Shown here in pieces: positions 281-7,534 of a stretch of DNA of 64,000 bases. Both the position numbers and the translations under genes were made by a program. The number at the start of each line of letters is the position of its first letter. Position 1 is the first letter of the stretch. The DNA is from Escherichia phage vB_Eco_F26: sequence record OP870145.1. One strand, written 5' to 3'. The notes under the pieces were generated by a model, which had not been told where the DNA came from, ran no database searches, and was given only the letters and a program-made list of their open reading frames with translations.

Positions 281-1564
281 ATGGCTAAAATCAACGAACT
301 TCTGCGCGAATCAACCACAACGAATAGCAACTCAATCGGTCGCCCAAATCTCGTTGCTTTGACTCGCGCTACCACTAAATTAATATATTCTGACATTGTA
401 GCAACGCAGAGAACTAATCAACCTGTTGCTGCTTTTTATGGTATCAAATACCTTAACCCAGACAATGAATTTACATTTAAAACTGGTGCTACTTATGCTG
501 GCGAAGCTGGATATGTAGACCGAGAACAAATCACAGAATTAACAGAAGAGTCTAAATTAACTCTCAATAAAGGCGATTTATTCAAATATAATAATATCGT
601 TTATAAAGTATTAGAAGATACACCATTTGCTGATATTGAAGAAAGTGATTTAGAATTAGCTCTTCAGATTGCAATTGTTCTTTTAAAGGTTCGTCTATTT
701 TCTGATGCTGCAGTAACAAGCAAATTTGAAAGCTCTGATAGTGAAATTGCGGATGCTAGATTCCAGATTAATAAATGGCAAACCGCAGTTAAATCTCGCA
801 AACTTAAAACTGGTATCACAGTTGAATTAGCACAAGATTTAGAAGCAAATGGATTCGATGCTCCTAATTTCTTGGAAGATTTGCTTGCAACTGAAATGGC
901 AGATGAAATCAATAAAGATATTCTGCAATCTTTGATCACAGTGTCAAAACGCTATAAAGTTACAGGAATTACTGATAGTGGATTCATCGATTTGAGTTAT
1001 GCATCTGCACCTGAAGCTGGTCGTTCATTATACCGAATGGTATGTGAAATGGTTTCACATATCCAAAAAGAATCAACTTATACAGCAACGTTCTGTGTTG
1101 CTTCAGCTCGTGCTGCTGCGATTCTTGCTGCATCAGGTTGGTTAAAACATAAACCGGAAGATGATAAATATCTTTCACAAAATGCCTACGGGTTCTTAGC
1201 TAATGGTTTACCGCTTTATTGCGATACTAACAGCCCATTAGATTATGTAATCGTTGGTGTAGTAGAAAATATCGGTGAAAAAGAAATTGTTGGATCAATT
1301 TTCTATGCTCCGTATACAGAAGGTCTCGACTTAGATGACCCTGAACATGTAGGTGCGTTTAAAGTTGTTGTTGATCCAGAAAGCTTACAGCCGTCTATCG
1401 GTTTATTAGTTAGATATGCTTTATCAGCAAATCCTTATACCGTAGCAAAAGATGAAAAAGAAGCAAGAGTAATTGATGGTGGAGACATGGATAAAATGGC
1501 GGGTCGTTCAGATTTGTCTGTTTTATTAGGTGTTAAGCTACCAAAAATTATCATTGATGAATAA
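281..1564 (+). CDS. 24: head vertex protein gp24
   Basis: 427 aa ORF; same length as T4 gp24, capsid-like fold signature, directly downstream of gene 23. Confidence 0.9.
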   Translation: MAKINELLRESTTTNSNSIGRPNLVALTRATTKLIYSDIVATQRTNQPVAAFYGIKYLNPDNEFTFKTGATYAGEAGYVDREQITELTEESKLTLNKGDLFKYNNIVYKVLEDTPFADIEESDLELALQIAIVLLKVRLFSDAAVTSKFESSDSEIADARFQINKWQTAVKSRKLKTGITVELAQDLEANGFDAPNFLEDLLATEMADEINKDILQSLITVSKRYKVTGITDSGFIDLSYASAPEAGRSLYRMVCEMVSHIQKESTYTATFCVASARAAAILAASGWLKHKPEDDKYLSQNAYGFLANGLPLYCDTNSPLDYVIVGVVENIGEKEIVGSIFYAPYTEGLDLDDPEHVGAFKVVVDPESLQPSIGLLVRYALSANPYTVAKDEKEARVIDGGDMDKMAGRSDLSVLLGVKLPKIIIDE

Positions 1565-1569
1565 AACAA

Positions 1570-1587
1570 AGGGACCTTTCGGTCCCT
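1570..1587. terminator. hairpin between convergent genes 24 and rnlB
   Basis: agggacc-tttc-ggtccct followed by ttttatt. Confidence 0.5.
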
Positions 1588-1593
1588 TTTTAT

Positions 1594-2598
1594 TTAACTT
1601 ACCAATTCAATCCAAGCCGGACGAAGTACATCTTGTACCATTTTAACTAATTCCTTTTTAATCAAAGAAGGATTATCCGCTTGAGTTAGAGTAATACCTT
1701 CACGAGAAGTTTCTTCCAAAATATCTTGAACAGTTAGCCCCATCACCTTTCCAAAATCCTTTGGACCAATTTCGCCAATTTTAGAAATAACGTTATTTAC
1801 TCGGTTCAGTGTAACGTAACAAGCTAAAATCCCCACCAATTTGTTATCAGCTTCTGACAGTTCAACTTTAGCTTTAATAGGCTTATCAGACTTTTTCTTT
1901 TCACTAAATTTGGAATTCTTGCATTTAATCGCTACACGATTGCGATTAGGCAGCCAAGAAGGATAACAAGGTTTCAATACATATCCTTCAGCAGTAAATA
2001 CTTCGCCTTTTGCTTCGGCATTCCAGACGCATTTATTTGCATCAACTAACCCAGCATGGTCTACTGTAAAATTATAATCTTGGACGACAGAATCTAAATC
2101 ATTTGGCAATTTAATAAGATCTTCAAATTTACCACGACCCAAAAGTGGAGCGATTTTAAACCCAAATGAATTACAAAACGATTCCATCATGTAATCATCA
2201 ACATAAGTTACATCACCACTTTCTGTAGTGACAATAATGTCAAATACATAAAAATCTTTATCGCCATAATCGACATTCTTCTGAATGCCAGGTCCAGCGA
2301 ATTCGCCAAAGACTTGATAAGATACAACCGCTGAGGTTTCCATAATATCTTGTACTGCTTTAATAGAATCTTCGTAATTCTTTAGAATAATTTCATACCC
2401 AAAGAAATCTTCAGCAGGAAGAATTGGTCCAGTACGTTTAGCGCAAGTTACTTTATCACGCTCAATAATCAATGAGAAATTTGTGCCGTGAATCTTTTCA
2501 CGAGCTACCCACTCCCCACCAGTCAATCCCAAGCTATAAAGTTTTTCAATAAATTTAGAGTTGTAATGATTTTCAAGACTGCTATACTTTTTAAACAT
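1594..2598 (-). CDS. rnlB: RNA ligase 2 (Rnl2)
   Basis: 334 aa; nucleotidyltransferase lysine motif KIHGTN; T4 synteny next to gene 24. Confidence 0.9.
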
Positions 2599-2607
2599 AA
2601 TTAATCC

Positions 2608-2886
2608 TCAAAATGTAATTTCTAACCAATCACCATCACGCTGATCACTATTGACTTTAAAGCTGAATCCTTCTTTTCTCAGCCAATCACCAATTTCTTC
2701 AGTAATCAATTTATCACGAGCAATACAATAATAATTAAAATGTGTTTTACCTTGTTCAGCTGCTTTATTAGCAAGTTCCGAAAAATCTTTAATAAAACAC
2801 TCTAGCTTAAACTGTTTACTTTTTAATGCTTTTTCGCGCAATTGATTAGCAAAAGATTCATTTTCATAAAGATCATACTGTTCCAT
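2608..2886 (-). CDS. hypothetical protein (T4 24.2 position)
   Basis: 92 aa ORF, codon usage consistent with neighbours. Confidence 0.5.
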   Translation of the reverse strand: MEQYDLYENESFANQLREKALKSKQFKLECFIKDFSELANKAAEQGKTHFNYYCIARDKLITEEIGDWLRKEGFSFKVNSDQRDGDWLEITF

Positions 2887-3088
2887 TTTTCACCTTTTTA
2901 TTGATATGTCTTTTTCTATAGACAACTTTTTCTCGAGTCTCAAATTTATTCTTAGCAGTCATAGCTCGAGCCCATAATACAGCCACTTCTTTTGCCTGTA
3001 AGTTCAATTCACGAGCAATTTCAATGAATGACTTTCCAGACTCATGAAGCGTAAACACCACAACCTCAGTTCTCATAATTAATCTCAT
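2873..3088 (-). CDS. hypothetical protein (T4 24.3 position)
   Basis: 71 aa ORF. Confidence 0.45.
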   Translation of the reverse strand: MRLIMRTEVVVFTLHESGKSFIEIARELNLQAKEVAVLWARAMTAKNKFETREKVVYRKRHINKKVKNGTV

Positions 3089-3155
3089 GTTATCGAGTTG
3101 GTGCCATTATATACATCATTTTCTGATTGTGTTTTGCGTGCTTTCAAAATGAAGA

Positions 3156-3173
3156 AAGGGGCCGAAGCCCCTT
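3156..3173 (-). terminator. GC hairpin (GAAG/CUUC loop) downstream of hoc
   Basis: aaggggcc-gaag-cccctt immediately after hoc stop. Confidence 0.4.
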
Positions 3174-3177
3174 ATGA

Positions 3178-4593
3178 TTATGGATAGGTATAGATGATAC
3201 CAGTTTCTAAAGCAGTTTTATGAATGATGTATCCATTACGCGATTCTTGGACATCAACTTCTGGATAGTCTTTAATCATCTTCTGAAGAGTGTAACGATG
3301 CAGGTAGTATTTACTATCTGGGTCGTCAGTTTTCCAATCTTTACCTTCTTCGGTCATTTTTTGGATTTCATCCATAACCCACCAACCGCACCAGATATAA
3401 GCTGAAGTACGATGTGGAAGAGGATGAACATAAGGTAGTTCACCTTCTGGTTCAATTGGAGTCCGTTCAGCAATAACAACTTCAGCTGTTGAACTAATTG
3501 TCTTTGAAGTGTAATTATCTTTAGTTAATACTGCTTCAACTTTAATTGTATGAGTACCCGCTGAGGAGGTATCAATACTATAAGTATTAGTAGAATTACT
3601 TTCTGCTACGTTGTCTTTCTTCCAAGAGTACACAATATTAGTATCACCAGGAGCACCAGTAACAGATGCTGTTAAAGTTGCAGTTCCACCAACAGTAGTA
3701 TTAACTGATGGCGGAGATAAAGAAATGGTGGCACTATTAAATGTCGCATTATTAGTTACTACTGTTGCTTCTGCTGAAATTTCTTTTGTAACATAATTTG
3801 TTGCAGAAACAGATGCGGTGCATTTAAGAGTTTTACTTCCGACTTCGGTCGGAGTGAATTTATACGTAGCAGAAGTTGCATCCGGAATATTACTGTCATC
3901 CATTGACCATTGGAATGTTATAGTAGCACCTGAAGGTGCACTAGAGACATTTGCAGTTAAAGTAATAGGAACACCAAAGACTGTAGTCGGAGACTCGGGT
4001 GTAATTTTTAGCGTCGAAGAATTAGCCTTTTTATTTACAGTCAAAGAAACCGCTGATGATTCTACTGTTTTATCAACGTAATCAGTTGCAGTCACTGTGA
4101 CAGAGCAAGTTATAGACTTAGTTCCTTCAGTTGTTGGTGTATATTCAAAGGTTGATTGCTTTTGACCGTCAACATCGACCCCGTCAACTTTCCATGTATA
4201 ATCAATAGCAGCACCAATAGGTTGATTGCTTACATTAGCAGTGAATGTTGTTGCTGTTCCAATTTCTACTGCCGCAGGAGAAGCCGGAGTAACAGTGATA
4301 GTGGAATTATTTTCTTTCTTATTAACAGTGATAGTTGTTGATGCTTCAGCTATTTCCGGATCTCCTGCGGAAAGTGTATTAGTTGCAACCACTTTAATTT
4401 TTTTTGTTCCTGCTGGAGAAGCAAGAGTATAATCCATTGTAGCAGCCGTAGAGCCCTGTGTTATATCATCTACAGTCCAGACGTATGTAATAGTACCGTC
4501 TGGGGTTTCACCTGCAGGTGTAGCAGTGAATGTTTGTGAACCTCCAATAACCCCTGTAGGAGTTAGAGGAGATAACGTGACAGTGAATGCCAT
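3178..4593 (-). CDS. hoc: Hoc, highly immunogenic outer capsid protein, with four tandem Ig-like domains
   Basis: 471 aa; four ~95-aa Thr/Ser-rich repeats plus C-terminal capsid-binding domain ...ELPYVHPLPHR...WCGWWVMDEIQK...IIYTYP. Confidence 0.85.
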   Translation of the reverse strand: MAFTVTLSPLTPTGVIGGSQTFTATPAGETPDGTITYVWTVDDITQGSTAATMDYTLASPAGTKKIKVVATNTLSAGDPEIAEASTTITVNKKENNSTITVTPASPAAVEIGTATTFTANVSNQPIGAAIDYTWKVDGVDVDGQKQSTFEYTPTTEGTKSITCSVTVTATDYVDKTVESSAVSLTVNKKANSSTLKITPESPTTVFGVPITLTANVSSAPSGATITFQWSMDDSNIPDATSATYKFTPTEVGSKTLKCTASVSATNYVTKEISAEATVVTNNATFNSATISLSPPSVNTTVGGTATLTASVTGAPGDTNIVYSWKKDNVAESNSTNTYSIDTSSAGTHTIKVEAVLTKDNYTSKTISSTAEVVIAERTPIEPEGELPYVHPLPHRTSAYIWCGWWVMDEIQKMTEEGKDWKTDDPDSKYYLHRYTLQKMIKDYPEVDVQESRNGYIIHKTALETGIIYTYP

Positions 4594-4602
4594 AAGTTAT
4601 CC

Positions 4603-5283
4603 TTATTTTAATGTTATGAAAGAAGAATTACGAGTTTCGCGAATTAGAACTGATCCATCGCGATTAATATAATAAATTAAGCTAAATAATGTTTGGTGTG
4701 CTGACGCATGTTCAAAACTAGTTGGGTGAGATTTCCAATCCGGAGTTTCAGCAATCCATTGATAAATCCACCAAGGAACAGTGCAGAATCCTGGATTTTT
4801 TCCAATCAGTTGAAGATTCGGACTAAAGTTTTCCGGAAGAGTAAATACAGACGGCTTTTCAGATTCAATAATCTCAGCTACAGCTTGTTCAAACTTTTCT
4901 TCAACAAACGGAGTGTCTTCAATCAAAACTGAGGTATTTTCAGGAATTTTATCCGTTTCTACTACTTCAATTTTAATGTCAGATTTAACCGGAGAATCAA
5001 TCAAAAGTGCTGCTTCTGGATTGACTTCTTCATCGTCATATTTTAATCCCTCTGCGGCATCAGCAGCATCAATTAAGTCTTTAATAGATAACCCATCAGT
5101 CTCCGGCATAGGTTCACTAGCGAGCTTCTGGAGGGCTTCTTCAATATCAACAACGATATTATCAAAAGATTTATTCTTTTTGACTTTTATACCAAACTGT
5201 TCAGCATATTCAGCTAATTTAGCTTTAGCTTCTTTATTATCATCAAGAGCCTTCAGCTCTGCAATATAATCTTTATCTATCAT
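4603..5283 (-). CDS. inh: Inh, inhibitor of prohead protease
   Basis: 226 aa acidic protein at T4 inh position between hoc and uvsW. Confidence 0.75.
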   Translation of the reverse strand: MIDKDYIAELKALDDNKEAKAKLAEYAEQFGIKVKKNKSFDNIVVDIEEALQKLASEPMPETDGLSIKDLIDAADAAEGLKYDDEEVNPEAALLIDSPVKSDIKIEVVETDKIPENTSVLIEDTPFVEEKFEQAVAEIIESEKPSVFTLPENFSPNLQLIGKNPGFCTVPWWIYQWIAETPDWKSHPTSFEHASAHQTLFSLIYYINRDGSVLIRETRNSSFITLK

Positions 5284-5296
5284 AATATTTCCTCAG

Positions 5297-5304
5297 TATA
5301 AATA
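5297..5304 (+). promoter_or_regulatory. late promoter TATAAATA upstream of uvsW
   Basis: exact TATAAATA about 30 nt upstream of uvsW ATG. Confidence 0.5.
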
Positions 5305-5333
5305 TAGATATATTTATTACATGGTATTTAGAC

Positions 5334-6845
5334 ATGACTGACATTAAAGTACATTTTTATGATTTTAGTCACGTGAGAATTGATTGTGAAGAAAGCACAT
5401 TTCATGAACTCCGTGATTTCTTTAGCTTTGAAGCTGATGGGTATCGTTTTAACCCTCGCTTCAGATATGGCAACTGGGATGGACGAATCCGTCTTTTAGA
5501 TTATAATCGTCTTCTTCCATTCGGTTTAGTCGGGCAAATTAAAAAGTTCTGTGATAACTTTGGCTATAAAGCCTGGATTGACCCACAGATTAACGAAAAA
5601 GAAGAATTATCAAGAAAAGATTTTGATGAATGGCTTTCTAAATTAGAAATCTATTCAGGAAATAAAAGAATTGAACCACACTGGTATCAAAAAGATGCAG
5701 TGTTCGAAGGATTAGTTAATCGTCGTAGAATTCTTAATCTTCCAACATCTGCAGGTAAATCGTTAATTCAAGCTCTGCTTGCTCGGTATTATTTGGAAAA
5801 TTATGAAGGTAAAATTCTTATCATTGTTCCAACAACTGCTCTAACAACTCAGATGGCTGATGACTTCGTTGACTATCGTTTATTCAGTCATGCAATGATA
5901 AAGAAAATTGGTGGCGGAGCATCAAAAGATGATAAATATAAAAATGATGCACCAGTCGTTGTTGGTACATGGCAAACTGTAGTAAAACAACCGAAAGAAT
6001 GGTTCTCACAGTTTGGAATGATGATGAATGATGAATGCCATCTTGCTACAGGAAAAAGTATTTCATCTATCATATCAGGTTTAAATAACTGCATGTTTAA
6101 ATTTGGTCTATCAGGTTCATTACGTGACGGCAAAGCCAATATCATGCAGTATGTTGGAATGTTTGGTGAAATATTTAAGCCAGTAACGACCTCTAAATTA
6201 ATGGAAGATGGACAAGTAACTGAGTTAAAAATTAATAGTATTTTTCTTCGCTATCCCGATGAGTTCACTACTAAATTAAAGGGAAAAACTTACCAAGAAG
6301 AAATAAAAATTATTACTGGGCTCAGTAAAAGAAATAAATGGATCGCTAAATTAGCTATTAAGCTTGCACAAAAAGATGAAAACGCTTTTGTCATGTTTAA
6401 ACATGTATCGCATGGTAAAGCTATTTTCGATTTAATTAAAAATGAATACGATAAAGTTTATTACGTATCAGGGGAAGTTGATACCGAAACCCGCAACGTA
6501 ATGAAAACCTTAGCTGAAAATGGTAAAGGAATAATTATAGTAGCTAGTTATGGTGTATTTTCTACTGGTATTTCAGTTAAAAATCTGCATCATGTTGTTT
6601 TAGCGCACGGCGTTAAATCAAAAATCATTGTATTACAAACAATCGGTCGTGTATTACGTAAGCATGGTTCTAAGACAATCGCAACTGTCTGGGACCTCAT
6701 AGATGACGCGGGCGTGGTTTCTAAATCAAAAACATCTTCTAAAAAATACTCGCATTTAAACTATCTTTTAAAACATGGACTTGATCGTATTCAGCGTTAT
6801 GCTGATGAAAAGTTTAATTATGTGATGAAAGAGGTTAAACTTTGA
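5334..6845 (+). CDS. uvsW: UvsW SF2 DNA helicase
   Basis: 503 aa; Walker A LPTSAGKS, DECH box; matches T4 UvsW length. Confidence 0.9.
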   Translation: MTDIKVHFYDFSHVRIDCEESTFHELRDFFSFEADGYRFNPRFRYGNWDGRIRLLDYNRLLPFGLVGQIKKFCDNFGYKAWIDPQINEKEELSRKDFDEWLSKLEIYSGNKRIEPHWYQKDAVFEGLVNRRRILNLPTSAGKSLIQALLARYYLENYEGKILIIVPTTALTTQMADDFVDYRLFSHAMIKKIGGGASKDDKYKNDAPVVVGTWQTVVKQPKEWFSQFGMMMNDECHLATGKSISSIISGLNNCMFKFGLSGSLRDGKANIMQYVGMFGEIFKPVTTSKLMEDGQVTELKINSIFLRYPDEFTTKLKGKTYQEEIKIITGLSKRNKWIAKLAIKLAQKDENAFVMFKHVSHGKAIFDLIKNEYDKVYYVSGEVDTETRNVMKTLAENGKGIIIVASYGVFSTGISVKNLHHVVLAHGVKSKIIVLQTIGRVLRKHGSKTIATVWDLIDDAGVVSKSKTSSKKYSHLNYLLKHGLDRIQRYADEKFNYVMKEVKL

Positions 6846-7534
6846 ATTATAAATTAATATATGATAATTTAATTAATAGAGCCCAGAATCGGGCTCGCCT
6901 TAATGGATACACTGAAACACATCATATAATTCCTAGATGTATGGGTGGTACAAATGATAAGTGTAATTTAGTAGAACTAACGGCTGAAGAACATTTTATA
7001 GCCCATAAACTTTTAGCTAAAATTCATCCAAATCATTACGGTATAATTAAAGCCGTTATATGTATGGGAATGAACTCAAAGACTCATGAAAGACACGTTA
7101 ATAAATCTTACGCGTGGGAACGTCGTAAAATGGCAGAACTTCAATCCGGCGAAGGTAATCCATTTTACGGAAAACACCATACGGAAGAACATAAACAATA
7201 TATGTCAAAACTCATGAAAAGTCGTCCAATTACATGGGGAAATAAAATTAGTAAAACTAAAAGAATGAACCCAACGAAATGGACTGAAGAAGCTAAAAGA
7301 TTACATTCAATCAATCAATCGGGTAAAAATAACGGCATGTATGGAAGGAAACATTCCGCTAAATCTATTCAGAAAATTAAAGATAACATGCCAGATAATT
7401 CAGGAGCTAATAACCCAGCTGCTAAACCTATAGAAGTAAATGGTGTTAAATATAAATGTATGAAAGATGCTTCTAAAGCTACTGGATTATCAATGTACAA
7501 ACTAAGAATACTTAGAAAAACAGTTAATTTATAA
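6842..7534 (+). CDS. Mob-type HNH homing endonuclease, free-standing, TTG start overlapping uvsW stop
   Basis: HHIIPRCMGG...NLVELTAEEHFIAH HNH motif, NUMOD3-like GxxNPFYGKHHTEEHK repeats; SD AAAGAGG 8 nt upstream of TTG; paralog of ORF 34989..35699. Confidence 0.8.
   Translation: MNYKLIYDNLINRAQNRARLNGYTETHHIIPRCMGGTNDKCNLVELTAEEHFIAHKLLAKIHPNHYGIIKAVICMGMNSKTHERHVNKSYAWERRKMAELQSGEGNPFYGKHHTEEHKQYMSKLMKSRPITWGNKISKTKRMNPTKWTEEAKRLHSINQSGKNNGMYGRKHSAKSIQKIKDNMPDNSGANNPAAKPIEVNGVKYKCMKDASKATGLSMYKLRILRKTVNL

Follow-up and report, generated by a model that had tools for sequence, protein, structure and literature searches.

An RB69-type hoc gene with four Ig-like domains in a T4-type phage backbone

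T4 nanoparticle vaccines rely on Hoc as their main display platform, and the "bacteriophage adherence to mucus" model assigns it the proposed role of mucus adhesin. In phage T4, the protein has 376 residues, comprising three Ig-like domains and a C-terminal capsid-binding domain, and forms 155 fibres of ~180 Å (Fokine et al. 2023, PMC10385173). In 650 Hoc homologues, the Ig-like string is retained with a varying number of domains, up to 10 in phage Muldoon; Hoc is highly variable even between close relatives of T4, and its homologues are acidic, with a pI of ~4–5 (RB69 Hoc is among those in the pI table) (PMC10385173). For phage PMBT63, the alignment of its Hoc-like protein to T4 Hoc spans 472 positions, retention of the phage by mucin-coated surfaces was observed, and the number of Hoc domains is said to vary widely (PMC13435897, 2026). 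That the number of Ig domains in Hoc varies, from 1 to 10 or more, is already in the literature, and the four-domain form described here carries little weight as a discovery, as GenBank has contained it ever since the genome of RB69 was entered (AY303349).

The hoc gene was found in the window (the whole stretch of DNA that was analysed, 64,000 nt) within the gene order gene 23 3′ end, 24, rnlB, 24.2, 24.3, hoc, inh, and uvsW in the ORF listing (Table 1). From 24 to uvsW, this order is the same in T4, RB69, and DalCa, as the synteny of Hoc would have it. The initial annotation of this DNA had placed a Hoc of 471 aa here, and its coordinates, length, and identity all stood; it gave no strand, which is minus. 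The product matched the T4 Hoc chains 5vf3_Z, 8t1x, and 8t9r among the PDB sequences (phmmer, E = 5.9e-141). Its computed pI was 4.72 vs. 4.74 for T4 Hoc, consistent with an acidic protein. In DalCa, the site equivalent to the GGGGCTTCGGCCCC terminator of hoc is annotated as a rho-independent terminator.

Table 1. Coordinates of hoc, its domains, its expression signals, and its neighbours in the window.
Feature	Position	Strand	Remarks
Gene 24	281–1564	+	
rnlB	1594–2598	−	
24.3 (DUF2774)	2873–3088	−	71 aa here vs. 56 aa annotated in T4
Intrinsic terminator 3′ of hoc	3146–3171	−	GGGGCTTCGGCCCC hairpin and T-run, just past the stop codon; read from the sequence
hoc CDS	3178–4593	−	471 aa + stop, intact ATG-to-stop ORF; highly immunogenic outer capsid (head decoration) protein
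Capsid-binding domain	3181–3465	−	aa 377–471; 93.7% identical to T4, 96.8% to RB69
RB69-type Ig-array cassette	3440–4640		~1.2 kb; sliding 100-nt identity, three-way alignment
Ig-like domain 4, RB69 type "c"	3466–3744	−	aa 284–376; Pfam Ig_3/I-set at 290–360
Ig-like domain 3, type "x"	3745–4029	−	aa 189–283; Cys258; without T4 counterpart
Ig-like domain 2, RB69 type "b"	4030–4317	−	aa 93–188; Cys163; Pfam PKD, best stretch aa 100–174
Ig-like domain 1, RB69 type "a"	4318–4593	−	aa 1–92; pLDDT 89–95
Shine-Dalgarno AAGGA	4600–4604	−	6 nt before the hoc ATG, overlaps the inh stop codon; read from the sequence
inh	4603–5283	−	
uvsW	5334–6845	+	

The Ig-like domains of Hoc were identified using an HMM built from seven units, those of the window Hoc and of T4 Hoc. 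The HMM gave exactly four full-length matches in Hoc, at the residues listed for domains 1–4 in Table 1, with unit lengths of ~92–96 aa. In semi-global alignments of unit against unit, scores were 8–26 SD over shuffled controls, and identity among this Hoc's own units was 28–40%. Pfam matches along the array were to Ig_3, PKD, I-set, PKD_3, and Ig_2. AlphaFold2, run with a 26-sequence alignment, yielded about seven beta-strands per unit, with block-mean pLDDT values of 84–96 across aa 1–370. The best PDB matches to the model in Foldseek were four-Ig proteins (Dscam1 Ig1–4, ICAM-5 D1–D4, and Sidekick-2 Ig1–4), and RB49 Hoc (3SHS) was also matched (E = 4e-11). Foldseek TM-scores were low (0.15–0.37), since four domains on a flexible string do not share an inter-domain geometry that can be superposed; the matches were judged solely by E-value and kind. 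HMM, Pfam, AlphaFold, and Foldseek agree on the N-terminal Ig string expected of a Hoc protein. The claim of four Ig-like repeats of ~95 aa was borne out by the HMM, the shuffle z-scores, AlphaFold2, and Foldseek, and the facts that had been stated about T4 Hoc (376 aa, three Ig-like domains) were correct, the length being taken from NC_000866.

The C-terminal domain of Hoc is homologous to T4 residues ~281–376 and aligned to the T4 Hoc residues present in the solved capsid complexes 8t1x/8t9r (phmmer). It had been described in advance as nearly identical to that of T4, and the identity over its full length agrees with this (Table 1). AlphaFold modelled this domain poorly (pLDDT <50) because the input alignment is nearly invariant there; the model was left unused for this part in favour of the identity to the solved T4 domain. 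In an exhaustive representative search, the family defined by this domain comprised 138 clusters at 50% identity, with proteins of ~170–1473 aa, and the domain was C-terminal in nearly all of them. Searching the 96-aa domain alone against a 5.8-billion-protein index returned 13 short fragments; the length survey uses the full-length and the exhaustive representative searches.

Comparison by domain grouped the array with that of RB69. Identity to RB69 units D1–D4 was 97.8, 93.8, 94.7, and 98.9%, so that all four units are at least 90% identical, in the same order and in a protein of the same 471 aa, whereas identity to the T4 counterparts was 60.9% for D1, 55.2% for D2, and 41.9% for D4 (T4 D3). 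At the nucleotide level, hoc shares 96% identity with RB69 hoc and 100% with the genes of DalCa, Paracelsus, and PYps35T, where Hoc is annotated, and of HEMP5, where it is not; five further phages reach at least 99.5%. The allele was covered to at least 80% by 30 of the 674 matching phage records, 28 of them completely. Those members of the ~96% group that were checked (RB69, O157 typing phage 3, phiC120, and LNA2) are Mosigvirus; DalCa is a Tequatrovirus. We are highly confident that this hoc is the RB69-type allele, with four Ig units, of the non-essential head-decoration fibre gene of T4-like phages, and no result contradicted this identification. The position of T4 D246 is conserved in the window Hoc as D341; we take D246 to be the residue of domain 3 for which a change under mucosal selection has been reported. 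Such a mutation is mentioned in PMC10385173, where the residue is not named.

The extra unit relative to T4 is domain 3. In phmmer, Hoc aa 1–190 matched T4 1–190 and aa 289–471 matched T4 194–376, and the three-way alignment contained a clean 95-aa gap in T4 facing Hoc aa ~189–283, which is one whole unit. This unit is 40% identical to the protein's own domain 2 and to T4 D2 (z 24–26), as compared with 33–36% for the remaining units (z 9.5–15), and it carries the domain-2-type cysteine. At least 90% aa identity to it was found in 30 of 665 matching phage records. The length gap to T4 of exactly one unit, and the fact that this unit is closest to domain 2, would suit a T4-type Hoc in which one Ig domain had recently been duplicated in tandem in this phage lineage; other phages do have recent duplications of the T4-type domain 2, in which the B copies are 73–85% identical (472- and 568-aa alleles). 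Such a duplication is very improbable here, as the identity to domain 2 is only 40%, all the other units differ from those of T4 by 39–58%, and the four-unit arrangement is common to RB69 at 96% nt identity. Within hoc, Tandem Repeats Finder found no DNA repeat, and the longest internal exact match was 14 nt; the duplication was rejected on these two negative scans. The arrangement shared with RB69, the diverged units, and the lack of a DNA repeat indicate that the arrangement is long older than this phage. Likewise, the 40% identity to domain 2 and the lack of a DNA repeat indicate that the third domain, as judged from its sequence, is an ancient, diverged, domain-2-like paralogue rather than a recent gain, and was not gained in this phage. 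The initial annotation had proposed that "this copy gained one"; one whole unit beyond T4 is indeed present, but the entire array is a different allele, as in RB69, and the unit is old.

The extra ~95 residues are almost certainly not a linker or low-complexity spacer in place of a folded domain: the segments between units are rich in Thr, Ser, and Asn, but no support for a spacer was found, the Ig-unit HMM covers aa 189–283 end to end, the core positions align (the W of ".Y.W", the Y of "ATDY/ATNY", and the domain-2-type Cys), AlphaFold places seven strands there with pLDDT of 90–96, and Pfam PKD_3, PKD_4, and Big_3_5 match at aa 200–261. The linker reading had been named at the outset as the alternative to a complete Ig-like domain; it was rejected on the alignments, the HMM, and AlphaFold, and the full-unit match means that the segment is not a linker and the fourth domain is therefore real. 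An assembly artefact, in which a repeat was collapsed or expanded or two co-infecting phages were joined into a chimera, is hardly credible: genes with repeats are prone to misassembly, and the window as a whole has no match >97% to any single deposited genome, but the 30 phage records that cover the allele are independent and include the reference genomes of RB69 and DalCa, the units are too diverged in DNA to mis-assemble, and the ORF is intact with its own ribosome-binding site and terminator.

The surroundings of this RB69-type allele were compared with T4 and RB69 by sliding 100-nt identity. Identity of the window to T4 was mostly 95–100% in 281–3430 and 4630–6630 and 0–75% inside 3440–4630, whereas identity to RB69 was 92–99% over about 3130–4730 and 39–85% in most of the adjoining sequence. 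The T4-like flanks and the RB69-like Ig part therefore amount to an RB69-type cassette in a T4-type (Tequatrovirus) backbone. The cassette ends in the coding region of the C-terminal domain on one side and in the hoc start and inh 3′ end on the other. Both junctions fall within sequence conserved among the three phages, which precludes a finer placement. We infer that this placement is what homologous recombination would produce, with the cassette arriving through the conserved regions coding for the C-terminal domain and for the hoc start and inh 3′ end, either from Mosigvirus to Tequatrovirus or in the reverse direction. No published account of a hoc cassette exchange between Mosigvirus and Tequatrovirus was found, which is weak evidence since the search was poor in subscription journals. 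The sharp boundaries of the cassette make it a clean example of cross-genus T-even mosaicism.

Other differences from T4 were observed in the same region. Local dips in identity to T4 occurred at 2881–3030 (66–67%) and 5331–5430 (76%). The first is a patch of 24.3 at ~66% within a stretch otherwise 97–100% identical. Around the second, at 5281–5480, which takes in the inh–uvsW intergenic region and the uvsW start, identity to T4 falls to 76–84% and identity to RB69 rises briefly to 88–91%; a second small exchange, or a scar left by the absent segE, may account for this. Two GIY-YIG homing endonuclease genes present in T4 are absent from the window, segD in the 23/24 gap (208–269) and segE in the inh/uvsW gap (5284–5333). 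Co-conversion driven by SegE beside inh/hoc could promote exchange of hoc cassettes.

The gap between uvsW and uvsW.1 contains an insertion of ~680 nt at 6839–7516 relative to T4, RB69, and DalCa. An ORF on the plus strand (6842–7534), with a TTG start that overlaps the uvsW stop, encodes 230 aa with two NUMOD3 motifs and an HNH-like N-terminus, identifying it as a free-standing homing endonuclease. Of 492 matching phage records, 48 contained the insertion; its annotation in PYPS2T and Pu-Krd-SF5-7 reads "homing endonuclease". Over window positions 1–25000, no match above about 97% was found in the phage collection, the best being HEMP5, AV121, and T6 (96–97% over 95–97% of the query). The combination of a DalCa-like, RB69-type hoc with a PYPS2T-like endonuclease between uvsW and uvsW.1 therefore describes a mosaic phage that is itself absent from the phage collection.

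Domain architectures were typed in the best 120 homologues of full-length Hoc, whose lengths formed discrete classes one unit apart. The T4 type, A-B-C (375/376 aa), made up 79 of these 120; A-B-B-C (472 aa) was found in 28, plus one 468-aa variant, and A-B-B-B-C (568/570 aa) in eight. In the long T4-type alleles, the repeated B units are 73–85% mutually identical and are therefore recent duplications there. The architecture a-b-x-c (471 aa) was that of the window, RB69, and P0014. The window Hoc falls outside the 472-aa A-B-B-C class, its D2 and D3 being 40% identical and all its units RB69-typed, none T4-typed.

Hybrids of the two types were also found: a-b-C (376 aa; P0024), A-B-b-C (472 aa; P0026 and the cultured phage pEB20), A-B-b-x-c (567 aa; P0015, a 24-sequence cluster, and the cultured phage CCU7), and B-x-c (379 aa; P0017). 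Their junctions lie exactly at the conserved "...SLTVNKK" unit boundary. Some of the hybrid proteins are metagenome-derived and may result from chimeric assembly; CCU7 and pEB20, however, are isolates. The CCU7 gene is a five-unit hybrid (L007 349–2052) and that of pEB20 a four-unit hybrid (L009 615–2033). In phage OLB35, hoc (L008 901–2031) is frameshifted and scrambled, with two annotated CDS in an UNVERIFIED record.

Unit number in the Hoc family may change via recombination at the conserved inter-domain boundary (..SLTVNKK..), and movement of whole arrays would be anchored in the invariant coding region of the capsid-binding domain and in the inh/hoc junction. We give equal weight for and against a model in which the T-even Hoc array is a modular cassette, where arrays would cross between Mosigvirus and Tequatrovirus, units would swap at "..SLTVNKK", and a repertoire of 3–5-unit and hybrid adhesins would be tuned to the niche. 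A map of domain-level hoc shuffling was not found in the literature searched, in which Ig variability and number are already published. The cross-genus cassette boundary and the domain-boundary hybrids are a mildly interesting addition to the known variation of Hoc.

Judging from the T4 complex and the near-identical binding domain, one Hoc monomer would sit at the centre of each gp23* hexamer and would be dispensable for growth (PMC10385173). The fibre would exceed the ~18-nm fibre of T4 by about one Ig unit, or roughly 4 nm. As in T4, its adhesion to mucin glycans or bacterial surfaces would be weak and reversible, and its negative charge (pI 4.7) would add electrostatic dispersion. In view of the literature, it is plausible that a longer fibre would alter adhesion to mucus or to the host, as the initial annotation had suggested. 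Natural alleles that place 3, 4, or 5 units on one identical capsid-binding domain constitute a ready-made series for tests of fibre length and Ig type; the series bears on mucin and cell adhesion, immunogenicity, and phage dispersion, and its practical value is modest.

Compared with the described systems, the window Hoc resembles that of Serratia phage Muldoon (PMC10385173) in exceeding the Ig count of T4, Muldoon having 10 Ig-like domains. The Hoc-like protein of Klebsiella phage PMBT63 (PMC13435897) also has one Ig-like domain more than T4, but its insertion is at residues 109–209, after domain 1. Both are different phages with sequences more distant from the window Hoc. The T4-type Hoc proteins of 472 aa and 568/570 aa (e.g., G10400, BF15, and KMB23; UGKSEcP1/2), found in close T4 relatives, likewise have four or five units with the extras inserted after domain 2; these extras are recent domain 2 copies (73–85% mutually identical), whereas that of the window is old and diverged.

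T4 Hoc itself (NP_049793.1, 376 aa; PDB 5VF3, 8T1X, 8T9R) shares with the window Hoc its family, gene position, C-terminal domain, and acidic pI, and its domains 1–3 are the respective orthologues of domains 1, 2, and 4 in the window Hoc. It differs in having three Ig units rather than four, at 42–61% identity, and in lacking a counterpart of aa 189–283. RB69 Hoc (NP_861884.1, 471 aa, Mosigvirus) has the same a-b-x-c array and C-terminal domain, and its gene lies between inh and 24.3, but the flanks in RB69 are 39–85% identical to the window, whereas those of T4 are 95–100% identical. In vB_EcoM_DalCa (YP_010067596.1), Paracelsus, PYps35T, and HEMP5, the nucleotide identity of 100% extends across the whole gene; their neighbouring loci differ, and DalCa, for example, is without the homing-endonuclease insertion between uvsW and uvsW.1. 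Since DalCa is a Tequatrovirus with a 100% identical hoc, the same introgressed allele has already been deposited, and the exact protein is already known, having been deposited many times, including in reference genomes.
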